Assembly (NCBI GenBank): GCA_035696245.1
Contig: DASRQW010000273.1
Span: forward strand, 1 to 51,827
DNA length: 51,827 nucleotides
Direction: 5' to 3'
Origin: Longimicrobiaceae bacterium
GTDB lineage: Bacteria > Gemmatimonadota > Gemmatimonadetes > Longimicrobiales > Longimicrobiaceae
Shown piece by piece: positions 12,852-31,242 of this stretch (the first letter of the stretch is position 1; the number at the start of each line of letters is the position of its first letter). The notes beneath the pieces are model-generated. The model worked only from the letters and a program-made list of their open reading frames with translations, was not told the origin of the DNA and did not search any database. A program made the translations under genes and the position numbers.

Positions 12852-12852
12852 G

Positions 12853-13587: not shown

Positions 13588-13589
13588 CG

Positions 13590-13988
13590 TCACGGGCCGA
13601 TGCGGAGCGGGATGGTGCGCCGCGGGACGACGCGCGTGTCGGCGGCCACGCTTCCATCGCGCCACAGAACCTGAACGTGGACGTCGAACAGGTCCTCCTC
13701 GCCGGGGACCGGACGCGCGGCGATGCGCCACGAGTAACGGTCCAGCGGAGCGTCGAAATGCCCGTCCGCCGTGTCGGCCCAGAGCGCGAACTGCTCGGGC
13801 GGCGCCAGGTCCGTGCGCGCTATGAGCTCGTCGGCGAGCGAGGACGCTTCCTGGACCGAGGCGGCGCGGCGGCTGGCGCGGACGTCCGCCGCGGCCACGC
13901 CCAGCGCGGCGGCCACGAGCATCCCGGCGAGCGCGAGCGCCACCACGGCCTCGATGAGCGTGAAGCCCCGGCGGTCAGCGGCGCGCAA
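13590..13988 (-). CDS. gspI: T2SS minor pseudopilin, GspI-like
   Basis: A TTG at 13988 gives M-RAADRRGFTLIEAVVALALAGMLVAA, a short basic leader followed by the G-F-T-L-I-E prepilin motif; 132 aa. Alternative ATG at 14039. Confidence 0.6.
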   Translation of the reverse strand: MRAADRRGFTLIEAVVALALAGMLVAAALGVAAADVRASRRAASVQEASSLADELIARTDLAPPEQFALWADTADGHFDAPLDRYSWRIAARPVPGEEDLFDVHVQVLWRDGSVAADTRVVPRRTIPLRIGP

Positions 13989-14538
13989 CGTCCACCCTCC
14001 CCGTCCAGGCGTCCACGCGGATCTCGCCCGCCCGCCCATCTCCCGATTCCCACGCCAGCACCGCGGGCGCCGCACCGCCCAGCGGGTCGAAGCGCGCAAC
14101 GAGCACCGCCCGGCCGTCGGCCGAACGGAACCGCGCGGCAGACCAGTCCGCGACCGCACCCTCCATCAGCAGCGAGTCGTCCGCCTCGGCCGTGCGGCGC
14201 GTCGTCTCACTGAAGCGGCCAGTCTCCAGATCGATCCTCAGCGCGACTTCCGACCCGCTCTGCGTCGCTTTGCCGCGCGCCTGGCCGAGCAGGCGCACGA
14301 CGTCGTCCACTGCCCGGTCGGCGCCCGACTTCGGCCGCGGCAGCGCGGGCACGGCGACGGCGAGCGCGATACCCATCACCACGAGCACGACGGCCAGCTC
14401 GATGAGCGTGAAGCCAGGCGGGCGATGCGGGGCATCCGTTGACCACGCTGCCGACGCCCTGGCGAGAGGCCGTGCATCTCCCGAACGAGGTAAACCCGAG
14501 AGGATCGGCTGATGCGTGGCCCGCACGTCAGAAGCCAT
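13975..14538 (-). CDS. gspH: T2SS minor pseudopilin, GspH-like
   Basis: Prepilin motif PGFTLIELAVVLVVMGIALAV. The only in-frame start is ATG 14538, which overlaps the gspF stop by 11 nt and gives a long 41-aa leader. Confidence 0.6.
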   Translation of the reverse strand: MASDVRATHQPILSGLPRSGDARPLARASAAWSTDAPHRPPGFTLIELAVVLVVMGIALAVAVPALPRPKSGADRAVDDVVRLLGQARGKATQSGSEVALRIDLETGRFSETTRRTAEADDSLLMEGAVADWSAARFRSADGRAVLVARFDPLGGAAPAVLAWESGDGRAGEIRVDAWTGRVDVARR

Positions 14539-15733
14539 CTGCGTGGATGCCGTAGATGGCCTGCAGGAGCGAGAGCGCGACGCCGCCCACGAGCAGGCCG
14601 AAGAGCAGGATCAGCGCGGGCTCCAGCAGGGCGACGAACCGACCCAGCCGGCGCTCCAGCTCCGCCTCCATCTGCGTGGCGGCGCGGAGGAGCAGCGAGT
14701 CCAGCTCGCCCGTCTCCTCGCCCACCTGCACGAGGCGGGTGAAGACGTGGGGAAAGCCCCGCCCCCGCGCCATCGCGGCCGAGAGCGGCTCGCCGCGGCG
14801 CACGGCGGACTGGGCGGCGCGGAGGTCGGCGGCCACGGCCTCGTCCCGCGTGGAGCTCACGGCCACGTCGAGGGCCTGGAGCAGCGGGACGCCGCCCGCG
14901 GTGAGCGTGCCGAGCGTCCGCGCCACCTGGGCGGACGCGTACCGGGCCCGCAGCGCGCCCACGAGCGGCAGGCGCAGCAGCCACGCGTCCGACCTCTCCC
15001 GCCAGGCACCCGGCCGCCGCACCGTGCGCCACGCCGCCACGCACGCCACGATCGACGTGACGAGCACGGGCCAGAAGCGCGTGAACAGCCGTGACGCGCC
15101 GATCAGGATCGCCGTCGACGCGGGCAGGTCCGCGCCCGCATCCGCCAGCAGGTCCACGAACTTGGGCAGCACGTACGCGAGCAGCACCACGACGGCGACG
15201 GTGCCGACGCTCGCGAGCAGCAACGGGTAGGTAAGCGCGGAGACGACGCGGGAGCGCAGGGCGCCCTCGCGCTCCATCTGCTCGGCCAGGCGCGCCATCG
15301 CCTCGGCCAGGTGGCCGCCGCGCTCGGCCGCGCCCAGCAGCCCCGCCGCGACCTCGGGAAAGAGCGTGCCCTGCGCCGCCACTGCTTCCGCGATCCGGCC
15401 GCCGCCGCGCACCGCGCGCCGCACCTCGTCCAGTGCCTTCACCACGTCCGGCCGCCCGGCGCCGCGCGCGGCGACATCCAGGGCGCGCTCCAGCGGCAGG
15501 CCGGCGTCCAGCAGCGCGGCCAGCGTGGCGACCGCCTCCGTCACGTCGGCCCGGCGCGAGACCCAGCCGCCGCCACGCTCCCGGGCCTGGCCGCTCGCGG
15601 CGGGCTGCACCTTCAGCGAGTACAGGCCGCGCCGCGAGAGCGAGCGCTCCAGCGCGCCCTCGCTGGCAGCGTCCTCGGTCCCGCGCACCGTCTGCCCGGT
15701 GCGCGTGGCCGCCTCGTAGCTGAAGGTGGGCAC
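14528..15733 (-). CDS. gspF: T2SS inner-membrane platform protein GspF
   Basis: 401 aa with two GspF/PilC repeats (...LLDAGLPLERALDVAA..., ...LTAGGVPLLQALDVAV...) and three TM segments. The C-terminus ...LLQAIYGIHADGF is typical. Confidence 0.9.
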   Translation of the reverse strand: MPTFSYEAATRTGQTVRGTEDAASEGALERSLSRRGLYSLKVQPAASGQARERGGGWVSRRADVTEAVATLAALLDAGLPLERALDVAARGAGRPDVVKALDEVRRAVRGGGRIAEAVAAQGTLFPEVAAGLLGAAERGGHLAEAMARLAEQMEREGALRSRVVSALTYPLLLASVGTVAVVVLLAYVLPKFVDLLADAGADLPASTAILIGASRLFTRFWPVLVTSIVACVAAWRTVRRPGAWRERSDAWLLRLPLVGALRARYASAQVARTLGTLTAGGVPLLQALDVAVSSTRDEAVAADLRAAQSAVRRGEPLSAAMARGRGFPHVFTRLVQVGEETGELDSLLLRAATQMEAELERRLGRFVALLEPALILLFGLLVGGVALSLLQAIYGIHADGF

Positions 15734-15734
15734 C

Positions 15735-16169
15735 TTACTTCCAGCTCTGCACGTCGGCGTCCTCGCCCTCGCCGCCGGGCCGCCCGTCGCGGCCCAGGCT
15801 CACCACCTCGTATCCCCCATCGCTCTCCGTCCCCGGGCTGCGATACACGTACGGGTTGCCCCAGGGGTCGTTCGGCACGTCCTTGCGCAGGTACGGGCCG
15901 CGCCAGTCGCGCGGGCGCGGCTCGCCCGTGGGCGCGGTGCGCAGGGCGGCCAGCCCCTGCTCGGTGGTGGGATAGACGTCGTTGTCCAGCCGGTACGCGT
16001 CGAGCGCGGCGCCCAGCATCTCCACCTGCGACTTGGCCGTCGTCACCTTCGAGGCGCCGACGTGCCGGAACACGTTGGGCGCCACGAGCGCGGCCAGGGC
16101 GCCCAGGATGATGATGACCACCATGATCTCGATGAGCGTGAAGCCCGCCCGGCGGTTTCGCTGTTCCAT
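15735..16169 (-). CDS. gspG: T2SS major pseudopilin GspG
   Basis: MEQRNRRAGFTLIEIMVVIIILGALAALVAPNVFRHVGASKVTTAKSQVEMLGAALDAYRLDNDVYPTTEQGL...DPWGNPYVY is the canonical GspG sequence; 144 aa. Confidence 0.9.
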   Translation of the reverse strand: MEQRNRRAGFTLIEIMVVIIILGALAALVAPNVFRHVGASKVTTAKSQVEMLGAALDAYRLDNDVYPTTEQGLAALRTAPTGEPRPRDWRGPYLRKDVPNDPWGNPYVYRSPGTESDGGYEVVSLGRDGRPGGEGEDADVQSWK

Positions 16170-16200
16170 GACGCGTGCTGGATGATGAGGGGAGATGCGG

Positions 16201-17634
16201 TCACGCCTGCGCGACCCGCAGCACTTCTTCGGGGGTGGTGACGCCGGCGGCCACCTGCCGCCAGCCGTCGTCGCGCAGCGGCCGCATGCCGCCTTCCACG
16301 GCGGCGCGGCGGATAGACCCCGCGCCCTGGCGGCGCAGCAGCTCGGAGCGCACCGCATCGTCCACGCGAAGCAGCTCGTAGATGCCCGTGCGGCCGCGGT
16401 AGCCGGAGCCGCGGCAGAGCGCGCAGCCCCGCCCGCGGCGGATGCGCGACGCGGGGAAGCCGGCCGCCGCCATCTCCGCCGCGGCCCAGGCGGGCGGCGC
16501 CACCTCTTCCGCGCACTCCGGGCAGACGGTGCGCACCAGGCGCTGGGCGAGCACCCCATCCACCGTGCTGGCCACCAGGTACGGCTCCACGCTCAGGTCC
16601 ACGAGGCGGATCAGCGCGCCAGGGGCGTCGTTGGTGTGCAGGGTGGAGAGGACGAGGTGGCCGGTGAGCGCGGCCTGCACGCAGATCTCCGCCGTCTCGG
16701 CGTCGCGCATCTCGCCCACCAGGATCACGTCCGGGTCCTGGCGCAGGATGGACCGCAGCGCGACGGCGAACGTCACGCCCGCCTTGCGGTTCACGGGCAC
16801 CTGGGCGACGCCGGCCAGCGCGTACTCGACCGGGTCCTCCACCGTGACCACCTTCTCGCGGCCCGTGCGGATCATCTCCAGCGCGGCGTACAGCGTGGTC
16901 GTCTTCCCGCTGCCCGTGGGCCCCGTGGCGAGGATGACCCCGTGCGGGCGCGCCAGCAGCTCGTCGAACTGCTTTCGCGTCGCCGCGTCCATCCCCAGGT
17001 GGGAGAGGTCGTGCTGGCGTCCGCCCTCGTTCTCCAGCAGGCGCAGCACCATGCTCTCGCCGTGCAGCGTGGGCAGCGTGCTGAGGCGCACGTCCACCGC
17101 GCGGCCCTCCACACGGAGGCGGACGCGGCCGTCCTGCGGACGTCTCCGCTCCGCCACGTCCATCTCACCCATCACCTTGAGCCGGCCGATCACGGCGGAC
17201 GCCAGCGCCGGGGGCGGCGACGGCGCGGCGACCAGCACGCCGTCCACGCGGTAGCGGACCTCCAGCCCGCCGCGGCCCGTCTCCAGGTGCACGTCGCTGG
17301 CGCGCGCCTCCAGCGCCTCGCGCAGGATCAGGTTGACCAGGCGGATGACCGGTGCCTCCTGGATCCGCGCCGCCAAGTCTCCCTCCCCGGCATCGTCTCC
17401 CGCGCCGTCGCCCGGCTCGCCGAGCGAGGCGATCAGGTCCGCGGCCGTCTCGTCCGCGCCTTGCTCCAGCCGGGCGAGCGCGTTCGCCAGCTCCTCCGCC
17501 GGGATGCGCTCCACCGTGGGCTCGGCACCAAACGCCCAGCGCAGGTCGTCCATCACCTGCGGGTCCGGCTCCCCCGCCGCCAGCACGCGCACGCACCCCG
17601 CCTCGACGATGGGGATGACGCCCCACTCGACCAT
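16201..17634 (-). CDS. gspE: T2SS ATPase GspE
   Basis: Walker A GPTGSGKTTTLYA, Asp box, Walker B DPDVILVGEMRD, His box LTGHLVLSTLHTN, and a tetracysteine motif CPEC...CALCRGSGYRGRTGIYE. The start was chosen at MVEWGVIPIV; upstream ORF sequence is junk. Confidence 0.9.
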   Translation of the reverse strand: MVEWGVIPIVEAGCVRVLAAGEPDPQVMDDLRWAFGAEPTVERIPAEELANALARLEQGADETAADLIASLGEPGDGAGDDAGEGDLAARIQEAPVIRLVNLILREALEARASDVHLETGRGGLEVRYRVDGVLVAAPSPPPALASAVIGRLKVMGEMDVAERRRPQDGRVRLRVEGRAVDVRLSTLPTLHGESMVLRLLENEGGRQHDLSHLGMDAATRKQFDELLARPHGVILATGPTGSGKTTTLYAALEMIRTGREKVVTVEDPVEYALAGVAQVPVNRKAGVTFAVALRSILRQDPDVILVGEMRDAETAEICVQAALTGHLVLSTLHTNDAPGALIRLVDLSVEPYLVASTVDGVLAQRLVRTVCPECAEEVAPPAWAAAEMAAAGFPASRIRRGRGCALCRGSGYRGRTGIYELLRVDDAVRSELLRRQGAGSIRRAAVEGGMRPLRDDGWRQVAAGVTTPEEVLRVAQA

Positions 17635-18040
17635 GTAGGCAGTGGGCAGGGGAGGGTGCGACGATGCGGACGACACGAAGGTTCGGGAGGCGAGGAGATG
17701 GGGACGCCAGTCCGGCGCGCTGCCAGACGGACGCTGCGAAGTGGACGGCGGTCGCACGGGGAGACCTTCCGCCTGCGGCTCGCACGGCGTGAGGAAAGAC
17801 CGCCAAAGGTATCCAAAGCCGCCGCGGGTGGCAATCGCCGCCCACGCCCACGGCCGCGGTGCTACGCCATGGTACCGCAGCGTGTTAGCACCGCGTGAAC
17901 GGCCTTGCCCACCCCACCCGCGCGAGGACGGCGCCTGCGCGCCGCGGGCTCCCGGAAAACGCGTGGCGCGGGTATTTTCCGACCGACGCCACCGCATTCC
18001 TGCCGGCGGGCTGCTCCCCCCGATCACTGGTCCCACGCGC

Positions 18041-18598
18041 ATGAGAAGAATCCTGGCCGCCCTGCTCCCCCTCGTCCTCTCCGCCTGCGTGCCTCGATAC
18101 CGCGTGGCGGAGTGGCGCGACGACTTCGAGCAGACGGAGACCCGGCAGATGCGCGCCAACGTCCTGGCGGGCGAAGGCACCGGTCACGACTGGCTGGCGC
18201 TGGATGCCGAGTCCTCCCGGACCCGCGGCGACACGGCGCGATACGCGCTGGTGGTCGACTACCGCACCAGCGGCCACCCGCTTCGCGTGCCGGCCGGGGA
18301 GACGCTCGTGTTGCTGGTGGACAGCCAGCGCGTGGCCCTCCGCGGCGCCGGAAGCTCCGGGCACCGCGCCCGGTCGGGCGTGCGCGGCGACCGCGAGCAG
18401 GCGCGGTACCCCGTGTTCCGCACCCTCCTGGAGCGCATCGCCGCCGCGCGGATCGTGCGGGTGCGGCTCGCGGGCCAGCGCTACTACGTCGAGCGTTCCT
18501 TCTCCACTCTCAACCTGCGCCACCTGCGCGAGTTCCTTGCGCCGCCGGCGCCCAAGCCGCCGCGCACCCCCACGCAGGCGACCACCCCGCAGGCGTGA
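18041..18598 (+). CDS. Lipoprotein of unknown function
   Basis: MRRILAALLPLVLSAC carries a lipobox (LSAC). 185 aa with a Pro-rich tail. Divergent from gspE. Confidence 0.7.
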   Translation: MRRILAALLPLVLSACVPRYRVAEWRDDFEQTETRQMRANVLAGEGTGHDWLALDAESSRTRGDTARYALVVDYRTSGHPLRVPAGETLVLLVDSQRVALRGAGSSGHRARSGVRGDREQARYPVFRTLLERIAAARIVRVRLAGQRYYVERSFSTLNLRHLREFLAPPAPKPPRTPTQATTPQA

Positions 18599-20957: not shown

Positions 20958-21002
20958 GGAAAGACCCCGTCCCTGACTCATCATCAGGCGCGGGGTCTTT
21001 CC
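20958..21002. other. Long nested hairpin
   Basis: GGAAAGACCCCG (20958-69) pairs with CGGGGTCTTTCC (20991-21002). The loop contains a second stem, CCTGA...TCAGG. No T tract on either side. Confidence 0.35.
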
Positions 21003-21459
21003 AATGCAGAATAGCGCCGGTTTCGGACTCTCGCCGGACGCCGGCGTTCTATTCCGTCTGCTTTGCCCTTCCGCACGTCCCGCTTCCCGCCGGCGTTCGC
21101 CCACAGCGCGCGCTGGACCATCAAGGGTGTCCAGCAGGCGCCGAGCAGGGCCGCGCGGTCGCGGAGCGCGGATGCGTACCGTGCGAAGTACGCGGGCGTG
21201 AACGCCACGTCGCGAGGCCGGGCACCTGCGCCGCCACCAGCTCGTCGAAAAAGGGGTAGACGTGCGGGCACATATGCGGCTGCCGATGCCGTCGCCGGGC
21301 CGAGGCGGCCAGCTTGGCGAGCGTGGGATCGGGAGCGCAGGGTCGGACACGATGGCGAGGTCGGTGGTGCTGGGGGTTCTGCCAGCAGCTCGCCCGGCCC
21401 GTCGTCCGAACTCTATCCGTCTCACCGAGGGCGGGAGAGGATTGGCGCGATGGGGACAA
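20984..21459 (-). pseudogene. Decayed paralogue of the HhH-motif gene at 23259..23852
   Basis: Two ORF fragments in different frames match the intact copy. ...HVYPFFDELVAAQVPGL matches HAYPFFDELVAAQVPGL, and DVAFTPAYFARYASALRDRAALLGACWTPLMVQRALWANAGGKR matches DVAFTPAYYARYAAALRARADLLGNHWTPVMVERALWAHAGGKR. One C is missing near 21213 relative to the intact copy (GTCGCGAGG versus GTCGCCGAGG). The stop codon is lost. Confidence 0.6.
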
Positions 21460-21474
21460 ATGTTTACAGAACCC

Positions 21475-21502
21475 TTGTCGTACTCTTTTTCAGCCTTATT
21501 TT
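21475..21502 (+). promoter_or_regulatory. Possible sigma70-like promoter for the orphan precursor gene
   Basis: TTGTCG (21475-80), a 16-nt spacer, then TATTTT (21497-502), inside the only AT-rich stretch upstream of 21575. Promoter rules for this lineage are unknown. Confidence 0.25.
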
Positions 21503-21574
21503 TACCACTCCCACCTCATCCCCGCCGGCCCAGTTTGCTCAGCCGGCGGCACACATCCGCAGGAGATCAACCCA

Positions 21575-21799
21575 ATGCAGAAGTTGAAGCTCGAGCTGGA
21601 CGCGCTCGCCGTGGAGTCGTTCATGACCGGTGACGCGACCGGCGGCGACGGCACGGTGCTCGGGCAGATCCAGGCCGAGAAGCCCACCACCAGCATGAAC
21701 GACCAGATGACGTGCGGCCAGAACTCGTGTGCGGGGGTGAGCTGCTACACCTGCAGCATCTGCATGTCGTTCGATTACATGTGCATCAACCCGGACTAG
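21575..21799 (+). CDS. Orphan Cys/Ser/Thr-rich RiPP-type precursor peptide (74 aa)
   Basis: AGGAGA lies 8 nt before the ATG. Sequence: MQKLKLELDALAVESFMTGDATGGDGTVLGQIQAEKPTTSMNDQMTCGQNSCAGVSCYTCSICMSFDYMCINPD. It has an acidic amphipathic leader with an LxLDxLxVESF box and a C-terminal 30 aa with 7 Cys and 6 Ser/Thr. Confidence 0.7.
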   Translation: MQKLKLELDALAVESFMTGDATGGDGTVLGQIQAEKPTTSMNDQMTCGQNSCAGVSCYTCSICMSFDYMCINPD

Positions 21800-21865
21800 T
21801 GGGGCACCACGCGTGATTTGATGTGTATTGCGGGGCTTTCGAAATAGAAGACCGGGAGCCGAGCG

Positions 21866-22321
21866 ATGCGAAAGCTGTACGTGGTGAAGTTGACGGAGTC
21901 CGAGCGTGGCGATCTGCATCGGCTGACACGCCGTGGCAAGGCAGGTGCGCGACAGATCAAGCGGGCGCTGGTGCTTCTGCGGGCCGACGAAGGTGCCACG
22001 GACGAGCAGATCGCCGCCGGAGTTGGCGTGGGCAGCGCAACGGTGGAGCGCATCCGCAAGCGGTTCGTCACCGAAGGGCTGGAGGAAGCGGTGACGGAGA
22101 AGCCTCGCCCGCCACTTCCGCCGAAGCTGGATGGGAAGGGGGAGGCGCTGCTGCTGGCACTGGCTTGCAGCGACGTGCCGGAGGGACATGCGCGCTGGAG
22201 CATGCAGATGCTGGCAGATCGTCTGGTCGCGTTGGGAGCCGTCGACGCCATCTCGGACGAGACGGTGCGGCGGAGTCTCAAAAAAGCAAGACGAAGCCGT
22301 GGCAGCGCCAGCAGTGGCTGA
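21866..22321 (+). CDS. IS630 transposase OrfA (HTH part)
   Basis: MRKLYVVKLTESERGDLHRLTRRGKAGARQIKRALVLLRADEGATDEQIAAGVGVGSATVERIRKRFVTEGLEEAV...ARWSMQMLADRLV... is a typical IS630 N-terminus. Confidence 0.85.
   Translation: MRKLYVVKLTESERGDLHRLTRRGKAGARQIKRALVLLRADEGATDEQIAAGVGVGSATVERIRKRFVTEGLEEAVTEKPRPPLPPKLDGKGEALLLALACSDVPEGHARWSMQMLADRLVALGAVDAISDETVRRSLKKARRSRGSASSG
22280..22286 (+). other. A_AAA_AAG slippery heptamer for -1 frameshifting
   Basis: OrfA reads CTC AAA AAA GCA; OrfB reads TCT CAA AAA AGC AAG ACG AAG CCG TGG, giving the K-x-KPW motif conserved in IS630 fusion transposases. Confidence 0.6.
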
Positions 22322-23244
22322 TCCCGGAGATCACGCCGGAGTTCATCTGGCGCATGGAGGACGTGCTCGACCTCTACGCCGAGGAGAGCGATCCAGAGCG
22401 CCCTCGAGTCTGCTTCGACGAGATGCCGCTGCAACTGGTCTCCGAAGTCCGCACCCCTCTGCCGGCGCGCCCCGGGCAGCCCGAAAGGTACGACTACGAA
22501 TACCGACGCGAAGGCACCTGCAACCTCTTCGTCTTCTTCAGCCCCGACATCGCCTGGCGAGAGGTCAAGGTCACCGACCGGCGCACTGGGGTCGACTTCG
22601 CCGAATGCATGCGGGACCTGGTGGACGTGCACTTCCCCAAGGCCGAGACAATCCGGGTGGTGCTCGACAACCTGAATACGCACACACCGGCCTCACTCTA
22701 CCAGGCGTTCTCGCCTGGGGAGGCGCGGCGAATTGTGAAGCGGCTGGAGTTCCACTACACCCCCAAACACGCGAGCTGGCTGAACATGGCTGAGATCGAG
22801 TTCTCCGTGCTGGGAGGCCAGTGTCTGGACCGTCGCCTGCCGACCCAACACAAGGTCCGCGTCGAGACGGCTGCGTGGTGCCGGGCACGCAACGAGAGCC
22901 GGGCCACCATTCGTTGGCAATTCACGACCGCCAACGCCAGAGAGAGGTTCTCGTCCCGATATCCATCGCCTCGGCCGTGGCGAGCCACTAGGCGCGTGTC
23001 GCCGCCCTGGACGGCAACCCCGCGCTGTAGGCAACGCCTCGGACCGAGCTACGAAAGCACCTCCGCGGCTTCGGGCGCGGAGGTGCTTTTGTTTTACGGT
23101 TGCCTCCGTTCGGTGGCGGGCGGCGGAAGCGATTGTGGTGCACGCCCCGTTAGACGGCAGATGCAGCATGACCTCTGCTTCGTTAATGGACGTCGACGGG
23201 CATCGATTCTCCTCTGTCGATCGTCCCCGCACGGGCCAGCCTAA
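22280..23244 (+). CDS. IS630 transposase OrfB (DDE part) entered by -1 frameshift; no stop inside the element
   Basis: ...KTKPWQRQQWLIPE...VCFDEMPLQL...NLFVFFSPDIAWR...VVLDNLNTHTP...HYTPKHASWLNMAEIEFSVL...IRWQFTTANARERFSSRYPS. Homology ends near 22975, but the frame stays open across the right IS end to 23244. Confidence 0.75.
23056..23095 (+). terminator. Canonical rho-independent terminator
   Basis: AGCACCTCCGCG (23056-67) / CGCGGAGGTGCT (23076-87) form a 12-bp perfect stem with an 8-nt loop, followed by TTTGTTTT. Confidence 0.7.
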
Positions 23245-23258
23245 GCTTGGTCGTTCCG

Positions 23259-23852
23259 CTAGCGCACTCCGCGCTTACCGCCGGCGTGCGCCCACAGCGC
23301 GCGCTCGACCATCACGGGCGTCCAGTGGTTTCCGAGCAGGTCTGCGCGGGCGCGCAGCGCGGCGGCGTAGCGCGCGTAGTACGCGGGGGTGAACGCGACG
23401 TCGCCGAGGCCGGGCACCTGCGCCGCCACCAGCTCGTCGAAGAACGGGTAGGCGTGGGGGGCGTATGCGGCCGCGACCGCGGACGCCGTCGCCGGGCCCA
23501 CGCCGGCCAGCTTCGCGAGCGTGGCGATGGGGCGCGCCGGGTCGGGGACGGCGGCGAGGGCTGCCGTGCTCGCGTCCACCACGGCCCCGGGCGGGTTGCC
23601 GCGGACGAGCGCCAGGTTTCGCGCCCGCCACACTCCGCGCGCCATCTTCCACTCCGTCAGCCGGACCAGCTCCGCGTGCGTGACGTGCGCCGGCTCGCGG
23701 GCCGCGATCGCGCCCGGCAGCTCGCCGCGATACCACGCATCCAGCTCCGGCAGCGGCTTCACGCCCTGCGCATCGACCACAGCGGCATACGCATCCAGCG
23801 CCGTCCGCCACGCTTTCGGCGCGTCGCTCGTCCAAAGGTCATCCATCGTCAT
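23259..23852 (-). CDS. HhH-motif protein of unknown function (197 aa)
   Basis: MTMDDLWTSDAPKAWRTALDAYAAVV...LAKLAGVGPATASAVAAAYAPHAYPFFDELV... contains a helix-hairpin-helix GVGPATAS signature. The start was chosen at the ATG at 23852; upstream ORF sequence is junk. Confidence 0.65.
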   Translation of the reverse strand: MTMDDLWTSDAPKAWRTALDAYAAVVDAQGVKPLPELDAWYRGELPGAIAAREPAHVTHAELVRLTEWKMARGVWRARNLALVRGNPPGAVVDASTAALAAVPDPARPIATLAKLAGVGPATASAVAAAYAPHAYPFFDELVAAQVPGLGDVAFTPAYYARYAAALRARADLLGNHWTPVMVERALWAHAGGKRGVR

Positions 23853-24078
23853 CAGGGGGTCGGAGGAAGTGTCGCCGGCTCGTCGGCTGCCGGGGCGCAC
23901 CGGTCGTGCCCGCACGCTGGCGGTGGCGTGTGGGGGAACGGCTACGCCGCCGGAAAGACGGGCTCGGGATCGAGCCACCTGTAGCCGCAAGGAGTTGCAC
24001 ATATTGGCGCAGAAATGGCTTCCGACATATCTCTACAACCGCGCCTAATGGGCCCTCGGTCGCTGGACCGAGTGGCGA

Positions 24079-24093
24079 CTCTATCGGATAGAG
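24079..24093. promoter_or_regulatory. Perfect palindrome in the divergent intergenic region upstream of the RiPP operon (possible operator)
   Basis: CTCTATC-G-GATAGAG, in the relatively AT-rich 24003-24310 spacer between the HhH gene and the first RiPP gene. Confidence 0.25.
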
Positions 24094-24309
24094 CCGGGCT
24101 TCGGGCACGAGCGCCCGGCTGGCGAGGTTAAACAAACCGAAAACGGTACACGGCAAAGACCTACGCACTGGACGGGGAGTGGCACCCAGCCTGCATACCT
24201 TTAGACGACAGAAAACACAGAAACAGGTGGATGGTCATCCGGCTTGCGCTCTCTCCGCGCGGCTCCCGGCTCCTCTGCCGTCTCTCTCGAACGCATACCT
24301 GGGCACCCG

Positions 24310-25278
24310 ATGCACAGCCCCGACCCCACCGTCACGGCGAACATCTACAGCGCACGCCACCTGGACGAGATCGTCCGCGGCGTGGTCGTGCCGCTCCGGC
24401 ATGGCCTGGCCGAGCGGGGCATGGCGGACCGGTGGTCGCTCTGGACCATGCGCTACCTGCGCCGCGGTCCGCATCTCAAGCTGAGGCTGCACGGGCCCGA
24501 GCAGGAGGCGGGCGCCGTCCGCGAGCTCTTGGAGGAAGCGGCGGAGGCCCACTTCGCCTCGCTGTCGCCGGAGGGCGACGGCCCCATGAAGCACTCCAAG
24601 GCACCCGCCGGCGCGGTGGACCTGGAGGACGAGGGCGAAGGCGAGCGCCCGGACCGCACGCTGCTGTGGACGACGTACCGCCGCAGCGCCGTCTCGTTCG
24701 GCCCAGACACCCAGCTGTTGGCGGACGACCGCTACGTCTCCCTCTTCACCGCCTGCCTGGCTGCCGCGGGCGAGATCGCCGTCACCGCCATCGAGCCGGA
24801 GATCTCCGAGGCGGGGCGGCTCAAGGCCCTGCGCGGCGGCCTGGCTGCCGGCGTCTCCGGCCTGCCTCTGACAGAAACCGAGCGCGACCTCTACCTCGAG
24901 TACCACCGCGACTGGCTGCTCCGCTGGATGATGCCCCACGCCGAGCGCGACGCCGAGATGCTGGCGAAGTTCGACCTGCGGGCGGACGCGAGCGGCGCCG
25001 CGGCGGCGGAGATCCGGCGCATCGCGAGCGAGGGCCCGGCGGTCGGCGCCTTCGCCCGATGGCGCGACGCGCTGGCGGAGCTGGCGGCGTACGTCGCCCG
25101 GTTCCGCGGCGACCCCGCGCACCACGTGGACCCCTTCACGGCCGACCCCGTCTTCCCCGCCCTGTTCAAGGTCTTCCACTCGCTCGCCAACCAGCTCGGC
25201 GTGGACATGCTGAACGAGTCCATGCTGCACCACATCGTGCTGCGCGCGCTGGCCGGCGCCGCGGTGGCGGGAGCGTAG
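24310..25278 (+). CDS. Stand-alone SpaB_C / thiopeptide-type bacteriocin biosynthesis domain protein, paralogue 1 (322 aa)
   Basis: ...ANIYSARHLDEIVRGVVVPLRHGLAERGMADRWSLWTMRYLRRGPHLKLRLHGP... matches the N-terminal signature of LanB C-terminal (elimination) domains (hhhRY..GPHhRhRh). An alternative TTG start is at 24244. Confidence 0.8.
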   Translation: MHSPDPTVTANIYSARHLDEIVRGVVVPLRHGLAERGMADRWSLWTMRYLRRGPHLKLRLHGPEQEAGAVRELLEEAAEAHFASLSPEGDGPMKHSKAPAGAVDLEDEGEGERPDRTLLWTTYRRSAVSFGPDTQLLADDRYVSLFTACLAAAGEIAVTAIEPEISEAGRLKALRGGLAAGVSGLPLTETERDLYLEYHRDWLLRWMMPHAERDAEMLAKFDLRADASGAAAAEIRRIASEGPAVGAFARWRDALAELAAYVARFRGDPAHHVDPFTADPVFPALFKVFHSLANQLGVDMLNESMLHHIVLRALAGAAVAGA

Positions 25279-25281
25279 CGC

Positions 25282-28044
25282 TTGCCGCGTACCGCACGCA
25301 ACCGCGCGCCCGTGATCGGGCGCTTCGGCGGGCTGCCCGCGGAGACGGTGGAGGCGTTCTCCACCGCCCTCTGCGGCGCCGCGGACGCGCTGGCTGCGCT
25401 CGAGTCGGAGCTGGCCGGGTGCCGCGAGGCGCTGGCCGACCGGCTGCACGACGCGGTGCCGGGCGCCGCGCTGGAGCTGCGCCGGCTGCTGCTGGCGGTG
25501 CGCCGCGACTGCCATAACGGGCGCGGCATCGCCCGGCACCGGCGCTCGCCGCAGTGGCCGCTGGTGGCGGACGCGGCGGGTTCGCTCGCCGGGCAGGTGG
25601 GCGAGCTGGAAGACCGCGTGGCGGATGCCTGGGCCGCGTTCCGCAGCGACTACGAAGCGGAGCGCGACCGCCAGAGGGGCGCCCTGCGCGAGCCGCTGCG
25701 GGACCGCGCGTTCATGCGCGGCCTCGCCCTGGCGAGCCCCGACCTGTACGACGCCTGCCGGCAGCTCGCCGCCTCGCCCACCGTCGCGCGGAAGGATGCG
25801 AAGAGCGAGGCGGCCCTGCTCCGCTACGTGGTGCGCGCGGCGCTCAAGACCTCGCCGTTCTCCACCTTCACGCCCGTGTCGGTGGGCGCGGCGGATGGAG
25901 ATGCGGGCGCGGCCGGCCTCCGCATCGCCGGCGGGGAGACGGAGCCGCGGTCGCTGGTGCGGCTCAAGCGCTTCCGCCTGGGCCAGCTCAGCGACGCGCT
26001 CTGTAGGTACGCTCCCTTCCGCGACGGCCTGCGCGTGGTGTTGAACGACTCGGCCGAGGACACGGAGCCGGGGCGCGCACTGCTGCTGCGGCCGGGCTGC
26101 TGGGAGGGAGCGGCCGACCGCGGCACGCTGCGCTACCGCGCCGATGCGCTGGTCCGCGTGGGCATCGCCGCCCCGCTCGTCCGGCGCGCCATGGAGCTCC
26201 TGGCCGAGGGCCGCCACACGTTCGGCGAGCTGGTGGCGCGAATCGAGGGCGAAGGCGCACCGGAAGATGCCGCATCCGCCCCGAGCCAGCTGGAACGGCT
26301 GGCGGAGCTGGGGATGCTGCGGCTGGTGCTGCCGTGGCCGTCGCAGGCCGGGCACCTGGAGGCGCGGATGTGCGACGCCCTCCGCGCGCTTCCGTACGAC
26401 GCCGCGCTGGAGCCGTTCATCTCCCGGCTGGAGCGGCTGGTGGCGCTGGAGGAGGGCTACGCGCAGGCATCCGACCCCGCCGCGTCGCTCCGCGAGATGC
26501 GGCGCCTGGTGGACGAGCTGTGGGGTGCGGCCGCGGCGCTGGGCGGCCGGTCCTTCGCCGGCACCGCCTACCGCGGCACCGCGCGCTACGACCTGTACGA
26601 GGACGTCCTGCTCGTGCCCGGCGGGGCGGAGACCGCGCCGGCCTTCCACCTCTCCGGCGACGCCGCCCGCCGCGCGCTGCGAAGCGCCGAGCCGCTGGCG
26701 GACCTCGCCGCGCTCTGCGACGACCGGCAGGACTTCCGCGCCGCCCTCGCCGCCTTCGCGGCGGAGACGTGGCCGGGACGCGGCGAGGTGGGCGTGCTGG
26801 AGCTGTTCTCGGCCGCGCAGCCGCTGTGGCAGGCGTACCTGGCGTTCCGCGCCGCGGGTTTCCAGGAACGCGACCCCGGACGGACGTGGAACCCGCGCGG
26901 CCTGCCGGAGGTGGAGACGCTCCGGGCCTGCCGCGCCATGGTGATGGACCGCCTGGCGGGGTGCGTGGAGACGCTGCCGGACGGCGACGCGTGCGTGGAC
27001 GAGGACCGGCTGCGGTCGCTGATCGGCGCGGTGCCGTCCGGCCTCACGGACGGCGGCGGCGGCGGGGCGTGCCTCTTTCTCCAGCCCGCCAGCCGCGACG
27101 GCTCGCTCTGGCGGCTGAACGCGGTGCGCGAGGGCACCGGCCGCTGCGGGAGCCGCTACACCCCCGCCATGCCCGCCGCGCTCCGCCGGGAGTACGCCGC
27201 GCACCTCCGCGCCCGCGGCACCGTCACCGTGGACGGCGAGCGGGCGGAGCTGCTGGACCTGTTCGCGGTGCAGGGCGACACGCTGAACGTGCACGCGCCC
27301 CAGACCCCCGCCGTGCTCGCCTTCCCCGGCGAGCGGACGGGGGTAGCGCCGCACCGCCGCGTGCCGCTGGGCGACCTGCGCGTGTGCTTCGACGGTCCCG
27401 CCGGGCGCATCGCGCTGCGCGGTGTGGACGGGCGGAGGTTCGTGCCGGTCCACCTGGGTCTTGCGTACGAGGCGTACATGCCGCCGGTGGTGCGCTTCCT
27501 CATGGCGCTGGGGCCCAGCGAGCGCGGCTCCATCCTTCCGCCCGCTCCCGAGCGCGCGGAAGGGGAGGTGCGGATTCGCGCGCGCACGACGCTGGGCAAC
27601 CTGGTCGTCCACCGCCGCGCGTGGTCCGTCCCCGCCGCCCCGCTCGCCGCCGCGCTGGCCGCGACCGACGACGCACGCGCTTTCGCCGACGCCAACCGGC
27701 TCCGTGCCGGGTGGGGCATCCCGGAGCGCGCCTTCGTCCGCGAGGCCATGACGCACCCCCTGGCCGGCACCGTCCGCAAGCCCCGCTACGTGGACTTCAC
27801 GTCGCCGCTCTTCCTTTCCGTGCTGCGCGAGCTGGCGGCCACGGGCGAGGAGCGCATCACCGTCGAAGAGATGCTTCCCGACCCCGCGATGCTCCCGCGC
27901 GACGCCGCGGGGCGGAGCCGGGCCGTGGAAGTCTTGGTCGACTCGCTGGCCCTGCGCCGGCGCACGCAACGCGCGGAGGCCGCTCCGCTCCGCCGTACCC
28001 GCGCCCGCACTGGGCGCACCCCCGCCGGCACCGCCGCCGGGTGA
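25282..28044 (+). CDS. Stand-alone LanB-type dehydratase N-terminal (glutamylation) protein (920 aa)
   Basis: The TTG start lies 4 nt after the upstream stop. VIGRFGGLPAETV...LRRLLLAVRRDCHNGR...FMRGLALASPDLYDA...EAALLRYVVRAALKTSPFSTFTPVSVG... follows the conserved LanB N-domain pattern (L.RY..R...R.TPFG.F). The size fits split-LanB glutamylation proteins. There is no C-terminal elimination domain. Confidence 0.85.
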   Translation: MPRTARNRAPVIGRFGGLPAETVEAFSTALCGAADALAALESELAGCREALADRLHDAVPGAALELRRLLLAVRRDCHNGRGIARHRRSPQWPLVADAAGSLAGQVGELEDRVADAWAAFRSDYEAERDRQRGALREPLRDRAFMRGLALASPDLYDACRQLAASPTVARKDAKSEAALLRYVVRAALKTSPFSTFTPVSVGAADGDAGAAGLRIAGGETEPRSLVRLKRFRLGQLSDALCRYAPFRDGLRVVLNDSAEDTEPGRALLLRPGCWEGAADRGTLRYRADALVRVGIAAPLVRRAMELLAEGRHTFGELVARIEGEGAPEDAASAPSQLERLAELGMLRLVLPWPSQAGHLEARMCDALRALPYDAALEPFISRLERLVALEEGYAQASDPAASLREMRRLVDELWGAAAALGGRSFAGTAYRGTARYDLYEDVLLVPGGAETAPAFHLSGDAARRALRSAEPLADLAALCDDRQDFRAALAAFAAETWPGRGEVGVLELFSAAQPLWQAYLAFRAAGFQERDPGRTWNPRGLPEVETLRACRAMVMDRLAGCVETLPDGDACVDEDRLRSLIGAVPSGLTDGGGGGACLFLQPASRDGSLWRLNAVREGTGRCGSRYTPAMPAALRREYAAHLRARGTVTVDGERAELLDLFAVQGDTLNVHAPQTPAVLAFPGERTGVAPHRRVPLGDLRVCFDGPAGRIALRGVDGRRFVPVHLGLAYEAYMPPVVRFLMALGPSERGSILPPAPERAEGEVRIRARTTLGNLVVHRRAWSVPAAPLAAALAATDDARAFADANRLRAGWGIPERAFVREAMTHPLAGTVRKPRYVDFTSPLFLSVLRELAATGEERITVEEMLPDPAMLPRDAAGRSRAVEVLVDSLALRRRTQRAEAAPLRRTRARTGRTPAGTAAG

Positions 28045-28094
28045 TCCATCCCGGGCCGTCCGGCCCGGGCCACAACCCCTCCAGGAGGCACACC

Positions 28095-28214
28095 ATGGCT
28101 CAGGACACCAACCAGCAGGACGCCGAGATCCAGCCCCTCTCGGACGAGTCGCTCGAGGAAGTCGCCGGCGGCGTCTGCTCGTGGAGCGGCTGCTCGAACA
28201 GCGCCTCGCTGTAA
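28095..28214 (+). CDS. Precursor peptide P1 (39 aa)
   Basis: AGGAGG lies 6 nt upstream. MAQDTNQQDAEIQPLSDESLEEVAGG|VCSWSGCSNSASL. Confidence 0.85.
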   Translation: MAQDTNQQDAEIQPLSDESLEEVAGGVCSWSGCSNSASL

Positions 28215-28278
28215 GCTCGCACAACGTCTCCAGGCCGGCACCGGCCCGGAACACCCCCTCACCACATGGAGGCACACC

Positions 28279-28392
28279 ATGGCTCAGGACACCAACCAGC
28301 AGGACGCCGACATCCAGCCCCTCTCGGATGAGTCGCTCGAGGAAGTCGCCGGCGGCCTCTGCTCGTGGAGCGGCTGCTCGAACAGCGCCTGA
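28279..28392 (+). CDS. Precursor peptide P2 (37 aa)
   Basis: GGAGG SD. MAQDTNQQDADIQPLSDESLEEVAGG|LCSWSGCSNSA. Confidence 0.85.
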   Translation: MAQDTNQQDADIQPLSDESLEEVAGGLCSWSGCSNSA

Positions 28393-28454
28393 TCTTCGAC
28401 CCCGCCGGGCCGCCCCGGCCCGGACCCCTGAACACCCACTCAAGGAGGCACATC

Positions 28455-28589
28455 ATGGCTCAGGATCCCAACCAGCAGGACGACATCCAGCCCCTCTCGG
28501 ATGAGTCGCTCGAGGAAGTCGCCGGCGGCGTCTGCTCGTGGAGCGGCTGCTCGAACGGCGCCAGCGCGCCCGCACCTACGGTCGACTAA
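28455..28589 (+). CDS. Precursor peptide P3 (44 aa)
   Basis: AGGAGG SD. MAQDPNQQDDIQPLSDESLEEVAGG|VCSWSGCSNGASAPAPTVD. Confidence 0.85.
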   Translation: MAQDPNQQDDIQPLSDESLEEVAGGVCSWSGCSNGASAPAPTVD

Positions 28590-28598
28590 GAGGACGGC

Positions 28599-28712
28599 AA
28601 GGCTCAGCATCTCGACCAGCACGCCGCCGGCATCCAGTCCCTCCCTGACGAGTCGCTGGAGGAAGTGGCCGGCGGAGTGTGCTGGTGGAGCTGCTGCCCG
28701 AACAGCGACTGA
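28599..28712 (+). pseudogene. Decayed precursor copy psi-P4 (start codon ATG changed to AAG; both invariant Ser lost)
   Basis: AAG GCT CAG CAT... aligns with ATG GCT CAG GAT... of its neighbours. It would read KAQHLDQHAAGIQSLPDESLEEVAGG|VCWWSCCPNSD. No alternative start is available and the SD is degraded (AAGAGGAC). Confidence 0.7.
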
Positions 28713-28772
28713 TCTCGTTCCACCGTCCGGGCCCCGACGGCGCGGACCACACTCCAACTGAAGAGGCACACC

Positions 28773-28907
28773 ATGGCACAGGATCCCAACCAGCAGGACG
28801 ACATCCAGCCGCTCTCGGACGAGTCGCTGGAGGAAGTGGCGGGGGGCATCTGCTCGGTCAGCAGCTGCTCGAACACCACCACCAGCACGAAGCCTTCGGG
28901 CAGCTAG
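28773..28907 (+). CDS. Precursor peptide P5 (44 aa)
   Basis: AGAGG SD. MAQDPNQQDDIQPLSDESLEEVAGG|ICSVSSCSNTTTSTKPSGS. Confidence 0.85.
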   Translation: MAQDPNQQDDIQPLSDESLEEVAGGICSVSSCSNTTTSTKPSGS

Positions 28908-28917
28908 GAGGCACACC

Positions 28918-29040
28918 ATGGCCCAAGATCCCAACCAGCAGGATGACATCCAGCCGCTCTCGGACGAATCGCTCGAGGAAGTGGCCGGCGGCATCTGCTC
29001 GTGGAGCGGGTGCTCGAACTCCTCGATCGTGCAGAAGTAG
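28918..29040 (+). CDS. Precursor peptide P6 (40 aa)
   Basis: AGGAGG SD overlapping the P5 stop. MAQDPNQQDDIQPLSDESLEEVAGG|ICSWSGCSNSSIVQK. Confidence 0.85.
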   Translation: MAQDPNQQDDIQPLSDESLEEVAGGICSWSGCSNSSIVQK

Positions 29041-29051
29041 TATCGACCGTG

Positions 29052-29077
29052 CGAGGGGGGGCGGCCTGCCCCCCTCG
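29052..29077 (+). terminator. Strong G/C hairpin closing the first precursor block (attenuator or mRNA-stabilising stem; no T tract)
   Basis: CGAGGGGGG (29052-60) / CCCCCCTCG (29069-77), 8-nt loop, 12 nt after the P6 stop. Confidence 0.45.
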
Positions 29078-29146
29078 CCCGGCACCCCGGCTTTCCTCCA
29101 ACCACGCGGAACCGTGACGCAGACAGCCTCGCCCGAAGCCGCCGCC

Positions 29147-29806
29147 ATGCCCTGGTTCGACCTCGTCTCGCTGTCGGGCGACGAGGGGCGGCGCTGGCGC
29201 GAGCAGTACGGGCGCTTCGACAGCGTGGCGAAGGGGATCATGGGCTCGGTGCCGCTCCTGCGCCGGGGCGAGATCGACACCGGCGCCCGCATGCTGAAGG
29301 ACGCGCGCGAGCAGCTCTCGGCCATGGACGTCGGCGACGAATCGATCCTCTCGGTGATGGAGCGCTGGTACCTGGGCGCGCTGGGGATGTACCACTACCG
29401 CCTCGCCGAGTTCGACGAGGCCGACCGCGTGATGGCGCGTGCCCACGAGCACATGGTGGACGCGGTCACCCGGCGCGGCTTCCTGGTTGTGCTGGCCGAC
29501 GAGGCGGTGGAGCTGCGGCTGCACCGCGCGCGCATCTCGCGCAACCGCCAGCGCTGGGCGGAGATGTGGGACCACATCTCCGCCGCGCGGGCCATGCGGG
29601 CGGGCGGCGAGCCGTTCTACGTGCTGCGCGACGGCAGGAGCGTGTGGCTCTCGGACGTGCGCGAGTTCCTGGAAGCGCTTCCCGCGGCGCCGGAGCAGCG
29701 GCCGGTGAAGCCGAACCTCCAGGATCCCACGCAGTGCCGCCAGGACATAGACCGCTGGATTCGCGACGTGCTGCGCATCCCTGACTCGGTCATCCACGCG
29801 CCCTGA
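29147..29806 (+). CDS. 219-aa protein of unknown function embedded between the two precursor blocks
   Basis: MPWFDLVSLSGDEGRRWREQYGRFDSVAKGIMGSVPLLRRGEIDTGARMLKDAREQL...; predicted all-helical and soluble. No LanC, protease or transporter motifs. An alternative GTG start is at 29114. Confidence 0.7.
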   Translation: MPWFDLVSLSGDEGRRWREQYGRFDSVAKGIMGSVPLLRRGEIDTGARMLKDAREQLSAMDVGDESILSVMERWYLGALGMYHYRLAEFDEADRVMARAHEHMVDAVTRRGFLVVLADEAVELRLHRARISRNRQRWAEMWDHISAARAMRAGGEPFYVLRDGRSVWLSDVREFLEALPAAPEQRPVKPNLQDPTQCRQDIDRWIRDVLRIPDSVIHAP

Positions 29807-29882
29807 TCCCGCACGCGCGCTCGCCCGGACGCCGGGCTCGCTTCCAAGCGGCGACTGGACCACCTTCCATCGAAAGCACGCC

Positions 29883-30017
29883 ATGAATCCCCAGGACCAG
29901 CAGGCCGAGCAGGCGATGGACGACGTGGAGGTCGAGCCGCTCCACGACGACGCGCTGGAGCAGGTCGCGGGCGGCAACATGTGCTCGCTCACCATGTGCT
30001 CGAACGTGTCGGTGTAG
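29883..30017 (+). CDS. Precursor peptide P7 (44 aa)
   Basis: MNPQDQQAEQAMDDVEVEPLHDDALEQVAGG|NMCSLTMCSNVSV. Weak SD. Confidence 0.75.
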   Translation: MNPQDQQAEQAMDDVEVEPLHDDALEQVAGGNMCSLTMCSNVSV

Positions 30018-30089
30018 GCTGCGAACCCGCGCGTCCCTGCCGGACATCCGCCGCGGACGTGGAAACAGCTCACGAAGAGCCGGAAGATC

Positions 30090-30218
30090 ATGTCGAAGCA
30101 AGCGCAGATGGAGCAGCAGCCGGACGAAGTGCTGGTGGACGCGATCACCGACGAGTCGCTGGAGGAGGTCGCGGGCGGCATCTGCTCGATGGTCAACTGC
30201 TCGAACGTCCCGGACTGA
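30090..30218 (+). CDS. Precursor peptide P8 (42 aa)
   Basis: MSKQAQMEQQPDEVLVDAITDESLEEVAGG|ICSMVNCSNVPD. Confidence 0.75.
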   Translation: MSKQAQMEQQPDEVLVDAITDESLEEVAGGICSMVNCSNVPD

Positions 30219-30351
30219 CCGCCGCGATCGGCCCGAGTCCTCGCGGGGCGGGCGATGCGGCCGGCCGTCGATCCCCGCTCAGAATCCACGGCCGCGCAGG
30301 CGACGCCGCCCGGACGCGGACAGGTTCAACCTTGCAGCGAAGGAGGTCGTG

Positions 30352-30477
30352 ATGCCGCCGGAAGAACAGCGCAGCGACGCGTTGGAGGATGCGGAGATCG
30401 AGCCGCTCCACGAAGAAGCGCTCGAAGAGGTGGCGAAGGGGCCCTGTTCCCTGACCTACTGCTCCAACCAGGGCTGA
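30352..30477 (+). CDS. Precursor peptide P9 (41 aa; KG instead of GG)
   Basis: AGGAGG lies 5 nt upstream. MPPEEQRSDALEDAEIEPLHEEALEEVAKG|PCSLTYCSNQG. Confidence 0.75.
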   Translation: MPPEEQRSDALEDAEIEPLHEEALEEVAKGPCSLTYCSNQG

Positions 30478-30603
30478 CCGGTCCGGTGGACGTCACCCGC
30501 CCTTCGATGATCGGACGCGTGCGGTCCATAGCGATTCGGTCCACACCGCGCCGGTTTATACCACCGGCGCGAACCGTTTCCACTCGCAACGAGGCAGGCT
30601 CCA

Positions 30604-30732
30604 GTGCCCCAGAACGACGAACAGCGCTCGGACGCGGTGAACGAGGCGGAGGTCGAGCCGCTCCAGGACGACGCGCTCGAAGAGGTGGCAGGCGGAATGT
30701 GCTCCTGGGCCTACTGCTCGGCGCAGGTGTAG
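30604..30732 (+). CDS. Precursor peptide P10 (42 aa, GTG start)
   Basis: GAGG lies 9 nt before the GTG. (M)PQNDEQRSDAVNEAEVEPLQDDALEEVAGG|MCSWAYCSAQV. No in-frame ATG is available. Confidence 0.7.
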   Translation: MPQNDEQRSDAVNEAEVEPLQDDALEEVAGGMCSWAYCSAQV

Positions 30733-30868
30733 CCGGCCCGATGGGCACGACGCCGCGCCGTCGGATGGTGGCGCGCCGCGCTCCGTGCATCTTCTCGCCG
30801 TCACCGAAATGCTGTGGCTCGCGGGCAGACGCACGCGGGCAGACAATCTCACGGGAGGCAAGACGATC

Positions 30869-31003: not shown

Positions 31004-31104
31004 GCCGCGGCCACCGAGCACATCTCGACAGGCCGCACGCCGGCGGCTCCACCGCACGACGAGCCCGGCGCACGGCCGGGAAAACCCACACCGAGGTGAC
31101 CGCC

Positions 31105-31236: not shown

Positions 31237-31242
31237 CGCTCC

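Follow-up and report, generated by a model that had tools for sequence, protein, structure and literature searches.

The stretch analysed here (the window) comprises 51,827 nucleotides of a Longimicrobiaceae bacterium (Gemmatimonadota; contig DASRQW010000273.1 of assembly GCA_035696245.1, forward strand). It carries a small gene for a Cys-rich peptide of 74 residues, MQKLKLELDALAVESFMTGDATGGDGTVLGQIQAEKPTTSMNDQMTCGQNSCAGVSCYTCSICMSFDYMCINPD, encoded by the open reading frame (ORF) 21575-21799. The gene appears to encode a precursor of the class I lanthipeptides whose leader resembles that of pinensin, a kind that is recognisable although uncharacterised, and its 3' end is interrupted by an insertion sequence (IS) of the IS630 family. 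The joint account that the peptide is a pinensin-like class I LanA, modified in trans and cut short by a nonsense TAG and the IS630 insertion, was considered fairly probable.

Precursor peptide and leader family

The translation agreed with the 74-residue peptide reported in a preliminary description of this DNA, as did the six Ser/Thr counted in the core segment quoted there (6 of the 10 found from residue 38 onward). For the core, in which seven Cys had been stated, six were counted. Six Cys together with Ser/Thr donors are in keeping with a lanthipeptide core. The sole curated family matched by the peptide was NCBIfam NF038180 leader_pinensin ('pinensin family lanthipeptide'), with a score of 20.5 bits (E 3.3e-4), under the cutoff of 24. 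A weak heterocycloanthracin/sonorensin match (E 0.063, 13.9 bits vs cutoff 35) was ascribed to the Cys-rich composition of the peptide and dropped. With a hidden Markov model (HMM) of the Longimicrobiaceae leader, the peptide scored 63-65 bits and is a clear member of this local leader family.

The family is very large, has the leader consensus MxKLKLxLDxLAVESFxT...GTVxG, and its cores are hypervariable, with much Cys, Thr and Ser. With a profile built from the ~40 N-terminal residues, 148 small proteins were found (those listed 30-76 residues long), sharing MxKLxLxLDxLxVESFxT...GTVxG; all named members were from Longimicrobium/Longimicrobiaceae or Gemmatimonadetes, and their C-terminal halves were Cys-rich and unrelated. 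Leader_pinensin was the only recurrent NCBIfam match (9/10 members tested, all under cutoff). For the exhaustive HMMER search, a full-length profile of eight close homologues was run against 1.84 billion cluster representatives, and 616 clusters (50% identity) were obtained at E <= 1e-3, just one of them, the close family, at E <= 1e-30. One protein from this search (P0250, 2099 residues, 22 repeats) was set aside as a spurious repeat-protein match. By scanning metagenome contigs with the leader pattern, 67 loci were obtained; when the window and the loci fetched earlier are included, there are 232 leader hits and 208 unique peptides, whose cores contained 14% Cys, 12% Thr and 6.6% Ser (median 6 Cys and 9 Ser+Thr). 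In the dense arrays (L027, L014 and L022; Table 1) the cores differ widely, and several L022 members end in a common ...C(A/P)(S/T)GxxxCCA.

In six fetched loci (L022, L017, L019 and L085-L087), probably representing four distinct clusters, the leader family is paired with pinensin-like class I enzymes. All six small genes (6/6) of L085-L087 matched the leader HMM, and an S8 protease was present where the contig extended far enough. The LanC of ~680 residues is widespread in Longimicrobium (340 matches at E <= 1e-20, the best 120 of them at least 54% identical). Three lanthipeptide regions have been reported by antiSMASH for Longimicrobium terrae (JABDTL000000000; PMC7291104). A split-LanB arrangement has been described for pinensin (Walker et al. 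2020). Because the arrays adjoin a split LanB and a LanC in the same manner, the leader family is best read as class I lanthipeptide precursors. The sub-threshold leader_pinensin match and the position of the family beside LanB/LanC in the six loci likewise support the interpretation of the window peptide as the precursor of a ribosomally produced peptide modified after translation (RiPP) with a LanB-type, class I lanthipeptide leader, which had been suggested before.

Close homologues

Seven close homologues (P0002-P0008; 63-76% identity) were found in Longimicrobium/Longimicrobiaceae metagenome bins or soil contigs, and one further (L011) in a Gemmatimonadetes metagenome-assembled genome. 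Their core is invariant, with the subfamily motif PTTSMNDQMTCGQNxCAGxSCYTCSIC. The distant members P0249 and P0010 keep PTTSxNxQxTCG...SCxSCSxC, and their tail is absent or their C-termini are different. A metagenome scan with core-motif patterns gave no confirmed relatives. The close homologues occupy at least three contexts other than that of the window, all of them unrelated housekeeping loci (Table 1), and at each fetched locus the peptide gene is the sole gene matched by the leader HMM. Enzymes are often distant from further leader-family members as well (L013, L014, L016). Modification of this core subfamily is suggested by the shared leader.

Stop codon and orphaned 3' end

As described previously, the present TAG is composed of the TA target duplication and the first base of the IS. 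With a canonical TA duplication the empty site is fixed as GAC-TAG-GCG, and precise excision would retain the stop, again as stated before. That the IS had struck the gene exactly at its stop codon holds for the present sequence but not for its evolution. All homologues (P0002-P0008 and L011; n=8) extend 5-16 residues past the end of the window peptide. After virtual excision (IS and one TA removed), the frame reads ...MCINPD-TAG-ARVAALDGNPAL-TAG; the 36 nt to the right of the IS thus form 12 in-frame codons, which resemble the P0007 tail QNVAELDGNPAL and are also homologous to the P0002 tail. The BLOSUM62 score against the P0007 tail was 44, which was reached by 0 of 5000 shuffles. Of the last 10 tail codons, 5 are identical to those of P0007, 4 are synonymous and 1 is non-synonymous, and in the excised ORF the stretch between the Ile that follows the last Cys and the stop has as many codons as in P0007. 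In the other two reading frames to the right of the IS, nothing like the P0007 tail was seen.

Because the homologues are all longer and the right flank holds a homologous tail in frame, the IS is placed within the ancestral ORF and TAG 21797-99 is read as a premature stop. By this reconstruction the IS site lies 13 codons ahead of the ancestral stop, in an ORF of ~87 codons with the TAG at codon 75. The homology of the tail with mostly synonymous differences indicates that it was translated and under selection until recently. In the most economical history, a point mutation would have produced the TAG first, also making the CTAG site, and IS630 would then have inserted into its TA. Alternatively, the IS may have inserted into TA-C and the right flank mutated afterwards; one substitution is likewise needed, but the choice of insertion site is left without a reason, and this order is less economical. 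We therefore infer that the nonsense mutation preceded the insertion.

IS630 element

The previously noted IS630 element with its TA target was recovered at 1190 bp, flanked by both copies of the duplication (Table 1). Assignment to the family follows from the helix-turn-helix (HTH) domains of OrfA, a DDE_3 domain (Pfam, E 2.9e-28) in the IS frame downstream of OrfA, the TA target with its 2-bp duplication, and inverted repeats at the termini, which are imperfect (GTGGGGCACCACG / GTGGCTCGCCACG, 12/20 positions matching). The transposase shifts to the -1 frame at an A6G run (CTCAAAAAAG, near 22279-22285), either by programmed slippage or through a lesion. Its DDE frame (22354-23244) has no stop within the IS and continues ~85 codons into the flank, across the old peptide tail and terminator, to end at 23244.

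The element had been termed the second copy of an IS630; by blastn/tblastn, no further copy of the IS or its transposase was present in the window, and none was found in 84 fetched loci or by exact look-up of the OrfA protein. The identical IS junction also occurs in a JGI contig (L001/L084) and in Logan contig L002. Among the contigs of four soil runs compared with 21400-23200, only the IS-bearing contig spans the junctions and no empty-site joint was seen; these were contigs and not reads, so that absence of the empty site is not shown. Insertion of IS630 into the 3' end of a small gene is real and mostly an ordinary event.

Upstream region and terminator

Upstream of 8/8 close-family genes, the elements TTGnC, ~16 nt, TAtTTT, a CTCCCACCTCA-like box, a GC hairpin and a Shine-Dalgarno (SD) sequence occur in conserved order, with otherwise unrelated contexts. 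A promoter of the peptide unit is suggested by this conservation; a strict sigma-70 scan called none at the unit. For the 5' untranslated region (UTR), covariation analysis of the 8-sequence alignment gave only an invariant 4-bp GCCG/CGGC stem without compensatory changes, and Rfam gave no match on 21000-24300. A regulatory role of the 5' UTR is speculative and an RNA element is not claimed. CUCC at the 5' end of the upstream block could pair with the GGAG of the SD.

The hairpin 23054-23089 with the adjoining TTTTGTTTT has a folding energy of -39.8 kcal/mol (z -7.0) and qualifies as a Rho-independent terminator. It starts 65 nt past the right IS end and 23 nt past the ancestral stop at 23028-30, and each IS-free homologous unit (n=7) has its own GC hairpin roughly 20-80 nt after the stop. 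A strong terminator beyond the IS and a formerly compact promoter-precursor-terminator unit had both been proposed in the preliminary description. Both fit these data, given the -35/-10-like box shared by the 7 IS-free units (8 with the window) and the hairpin of each IS-free one. The annotation is corrected accordingly: a 13-codon tail was cut off by the IS, and the true unit ends at 23028-30 and the terminator.

Proposed account and alternatives

In the proposed account, a conserved set consisting of split LanB, ~680-residue LanC, ABC/HlyD exporter and S8 protease is encoded beside some precursor arrays. Numerous further precursors, this core subfamily among them, would be scattered over the genomes as self-contained promoter-UTR-ORF-terminator units and presumably modified in trans by that set. 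Ser/Thr dehydration would be followed by formation of thioether rings to the six Cys and by leader removal after GTVxG. The window unit would have been damaged twice, by the TAG at codon 75 and then by IS630 in its TA. The ORF would now be 13 codons shorter, with the Cys core whole, the variable acidic tail lost and the terminator 1.2 kb away, and transcripts from the peptide promoter would enter the IS, which has the same orientation, and run as far as the old terminator. The truncated product, if still made, has lost neither the leader nor any invariant residue of the core, so it could still serve as a substrate. That the peptide is a LanB/LanC-type precursor modified in trans was in itself regarded as reasonably likely.

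Several points weigh against this account. The leader_pinensin score is under the NCBIfam cutoff. Neither a LanC nor a pinensin-type LanB was found in the 51.8-kb window (LanC by phmmer with the L022 and L017 LanC), and no RiPP enzyme, LanB included, was found within 6-10 kb of the close homologues in the loci fetched. A search for RNA runs found none. With a nonsense codon and an IS, the gene may also simply be decaying here. Taken further, this last point would make the locus a dead relic, an unexpressed pseudogene with nothing functional left, and the degenerate fragment of a neighbouring gene just upstream (Table 1) adds to it by suggesting a rearranged region. We consider a dead relic unlikely, though a real possibility, since the promoter-like box, the SD and the leader remain intact, as does every invariant residue of the core. 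The loss is limited to the variable tail, whose length and sequence vary from homologue to homologue and which P0010 and P0249 lack or have in another form, and the tail DNA looks selected (4 synonymous vs 1 non-synonymous codons), which argues that the damage is recent. Stand-alone genes without an enzyme nearby would also suit a secreted Cys-rich peptide (bacteriocin or signal) that carries disulfide bonds or no modification, its N-terminus conserved only for ABC/HlyD export and cleavage. The even number of Cys (6), the ABC/HlyD exporters of the associated clusters and a core conserved more strongly than is usual in a combinatorial RiPP library all speak for it. However, the same leader is found on every array peptide directly behind LanB/LanC in the 6 loci and resembles that of the lanthipeptide pinensin, and besides Cys the family cores contain much Thr and Ser, as expected for lanthionine formation; an unmodified peptide is thus improbable.

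The preliminary description had suggested that the peptide may be a second substrate class of the adjacent LanB cluster (24244-33351), disturbed in its transcription by the IS. On this reading the cluster enzymes would dehydrate the peptide, and the IS would now uncouple it from them. The distance is just 2.5 kb, the neighbouring enzymes are LanB-type, a Cys/Ser/Thr-rich core suits LanB chemistry, and a LanB glutamylation domain can in principle take more than one leader. Yet the cluster has ~12 tandem short precursors of its own (leader ..LSDESLEEVAGG (LEEVAGG), core xCSxxxCS[NA/Y]), for which the VESF-leader HMM gave scores of -1.9 to -2.6 bits, as opposed to 65 bits for the peptide. Besides the missing LanC, the LanB_N of the window is only distantly related (89-93 bits) to that of L022, which accompanies the VESF leader. 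The peptide shares no leader with the cluster and, having its own promoter-like box and terminator and an opposite-strand gene in between, gives no sign of co-transcription with it. Homologous precursors do not neighbour LanB in the loci fetched either. That homologues might keep company with a different enzyme family was borne out in part: the close homologues are not near LanB, and the leader family travels with a different LanB/LanC set. The proposed pairing is accordingly held to be highly improbable, and the adjacency is probably coincidental. Precursors should be assigned with caution to the nearest LanB, as the leader and not proximity points to the likely enzymes.

Feature coordinates and surroundings

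Table 1. Features of the window (positions without locus number) and of homologous or related loci (L numbers).
Feature	Location	Strand	Basis or content
Degenerate copy of 3' end of gene 23259-24002	21072-21371	-	blastn, 309 bp, 82% identity with indels, E 2e-81
Promoter-like element: TTGTCG (-35-like, 21475-80), 16-nt spacer, TATTTT (-10-like, 21497-502)	21475-21502	+	conserved in homologues
Probable 5' UTR: box CTCCCACCTCA (21508-18), GC hairpin CCGCCGG/CCGGCGG (21522-28/21543-49), SD GGAG (21562-65)	21508-21574	+	8-sequence alignments
Upstream block, window and homologues	window 21475-21574; L003 9439-9594; L004 9851-10006; L005 6278-6433; L007 467-622; L008 6379-6534; L009 2777-2932; L011 9851-10006
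Precursor ORF, present-day, 74 residues	21575-21799	+	translation; ends at TAG 21797-99, read as premature
Leader, ~residues 1-30: MQKLKLELDALAVESF..GTVLG	within 21575-21799	+
Conserved core: PTTSMNDQMTCGQNSCAGVSCYTCSICMSFDYMC, 6 Cys	within 21575-21799	+
TA target duplication, left copy (target CTAG)	21797-21798		sequence
IS630-family insertion sequence, 1190 bp	21799-22988	+ (as peptide gene)	Pfam domains, inverted repeat and frame analysis
OrfA of IS630 element	21866-22321	+	HTH_32 (5.4e-17), HTH_23, HTH_29 (Pfam)
TA target duplication, right copy	22989-22990		sequence
Orphaned 3' end of putative ancestral ORF: last TAG base, then GCG..CTG = ARVAALDGNPAL, ancestral stop TAG 23028-30	22991-23030	+	in frame after virtual excision; tail homology
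Intrinsic terminator: stem AAAGCACCTCCGCG / CGCGGAGGTGCTTT, then TGTTTT	23054-23095	+	fold
Gene between peptide and LanB cluster	23259-24002	opposite
Lant_dehydr_C, window cluster	24244-25278
Lant_dehydr_N, window cluster	25282-28044
Two further Lant_dehydr_C paralogues, window cluster	31280-33351
Giant non-ribosomal peptide synthetase (NRPS)	33562 to window end		C, A, PP domains; directly after LanB cluster
Precursor cluster with enzymes	L022		in order: Lant_dehydr_N (1077 residues, 7e-44), Lant_dehydr_C homologue, LANC_like (1.8e-47), 14 precursors, ABC, HlyD
Precursor cluster with enzymes	L017		Lant_dehydr_C (1.2e-45), LANC_like (1.4e-52), 4 precursors
Precursor locus with enzyme	L019		LanC
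Precursor cluster with enzymes (P0132 locus, found from LanC side)	L085-L087		Lant_dehydr_N (1085 residues), Lant_dehydr_C (346), LANC_like (683), six peptides, ABC, HlyD-like, Peptidase_S8
Dense precursor array	L027 2390-9689		23 leader hits (about 22 genes), ~7.3 kb of 10.5-kb contig
Dense precursor array	L014 4045-7255 and 9717-10516		15 leader hits
Dense precursor array	L022 9152-13348		14 leader hits
Close-homologue context	L003, L004, L011		polyphosphate kinase...peptide...FRG/thiolase
Close-homologue context	L005		DUF3224-peptide-DAO
Close-homologue context	L008, L009		sucCD-ndk-peptide

The peptide unit is bracketed by a direct repeat (21072-21371 / 23263-23570), which may be a trace of the arrival of the unit or a decayed paralogue. 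Further upstream, the window carries an RHS-repeat protein of ~1200 residues (1460-5119, minus strand) and type II secretion/type IV pilus-like genes (T2SSE, T2SSF, T2SSG, T2SSK, N_methyl pilins; ~11500-18200). The LanB cluster also contains an ORF of ~200 residues of unknown kind. One of its Lant_dehydr_C paralogues gave a weak TbtD_PbtD match (2e-12, 47 bits), far under the cutoff of 325 bits. The cluster may represent a system like those of pyritides or thiopeptides, or else a hybrid of RiPP and NRPS. JGI contig L001 (17183-17301), otherwise 99.9% identical, lacks one ~173-bp precursor repeat unit of window 28585-28875; the precursor array either varies in copy number or collapsed during assembly.

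Comparison with known systems

IS630/ISY100 of the IS630-Tc1-mariner family target TA exclusively and generate a 2-bp TA duplication (PMC2170065); a preference of IS630 for CTAG is given there with reference to Tenzen & Ohtsubo 1991. The window element is alike in its HTH and DDE_3 transposase, its length of ~1.2 kb, its short imperfect inverted repeats and its insertion and duplication of TA in a CTAG context. In contrast, its transposase is split by the -1 frame change at the A6G run, no stop closes the transposase frame within the element, and no other copy was found in the sequences searched.

With thiopeptide/pyritide LanB systems (TbtD/PbtD), resemblance was seen for the neighbouring cluster and not for the peptide, namely the split LanB, the extra Lant_dehydr_C paralogues, the lack of a LanC and the weak TbtD_PbtD match. 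The leader of the peptide, however, does not match the precursors of that cluster, and the TbtD match is far under cutoff.

With pinensin of Chitinophaga pinensis, the window peptide has in common a leader box of the type L-x-L-x(3-5)-L-x-V-E-S-F, which NF038180 matches at a sub-threshold score. The leader-family clusters share with it the Lant_dehydr_N plus Lant_dehydr_C split LanB and the LanC, and the cores are rich in Cys, Ser and Thr in both. Unlike pinensin, the family belongs to another phylum (Gemmatimonadota, Longimicrobiaceae), all its NF038180 matches are under 24 bits, its leader has an extra conserved GTVxG motif, the Longimicrobium LanC (~680 residues) is extended beyond the LANC_like domain, and the window gene and its close homologues lie outside any cluster. 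A large uncharacterised family of putative class I precursors, in arrays of up to 23 genes and with many solitary members, is indicated in a poorly studied soil phylum.

Prochlorosins of marine picocyanobacteria (ProcA/ProcM, class II) comprise many precursors with a conserved leader and hypervariable cores, partly scattered from one enzyme set. By analogy only, the Longimicrobiaceae family is alike in that it counts at least 616 clusters and has both solitary genes and arrays of up to 23. It differs in its class I machinery (LanB and LanC, not a bifunctional LanM) and unrelated leader, in the conserved rather than variable core of the window subfamily, and in that trans-modification is here only inferred. 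Tentatively, the Longimicrobiaceae might possess a prochlorosin-like combinatorial class I system, in which one enzyme set would mature hundreds of scattered precursors. The PTTSMNDQMTCGQNxCAGxSCYTCSIC subfamily would be an unusually conserved and always solitary member of it. Its conserved core, solitary position and own promoter and 5' UTR would suggest that its role is physiological, perhaps that of a signal or a morphogen, and not purely antibiotic. Should trans-modification be confirmed, the prochlorosin system would have a class I counterpart in this family, from which new thioether scaffolds could be drawn.

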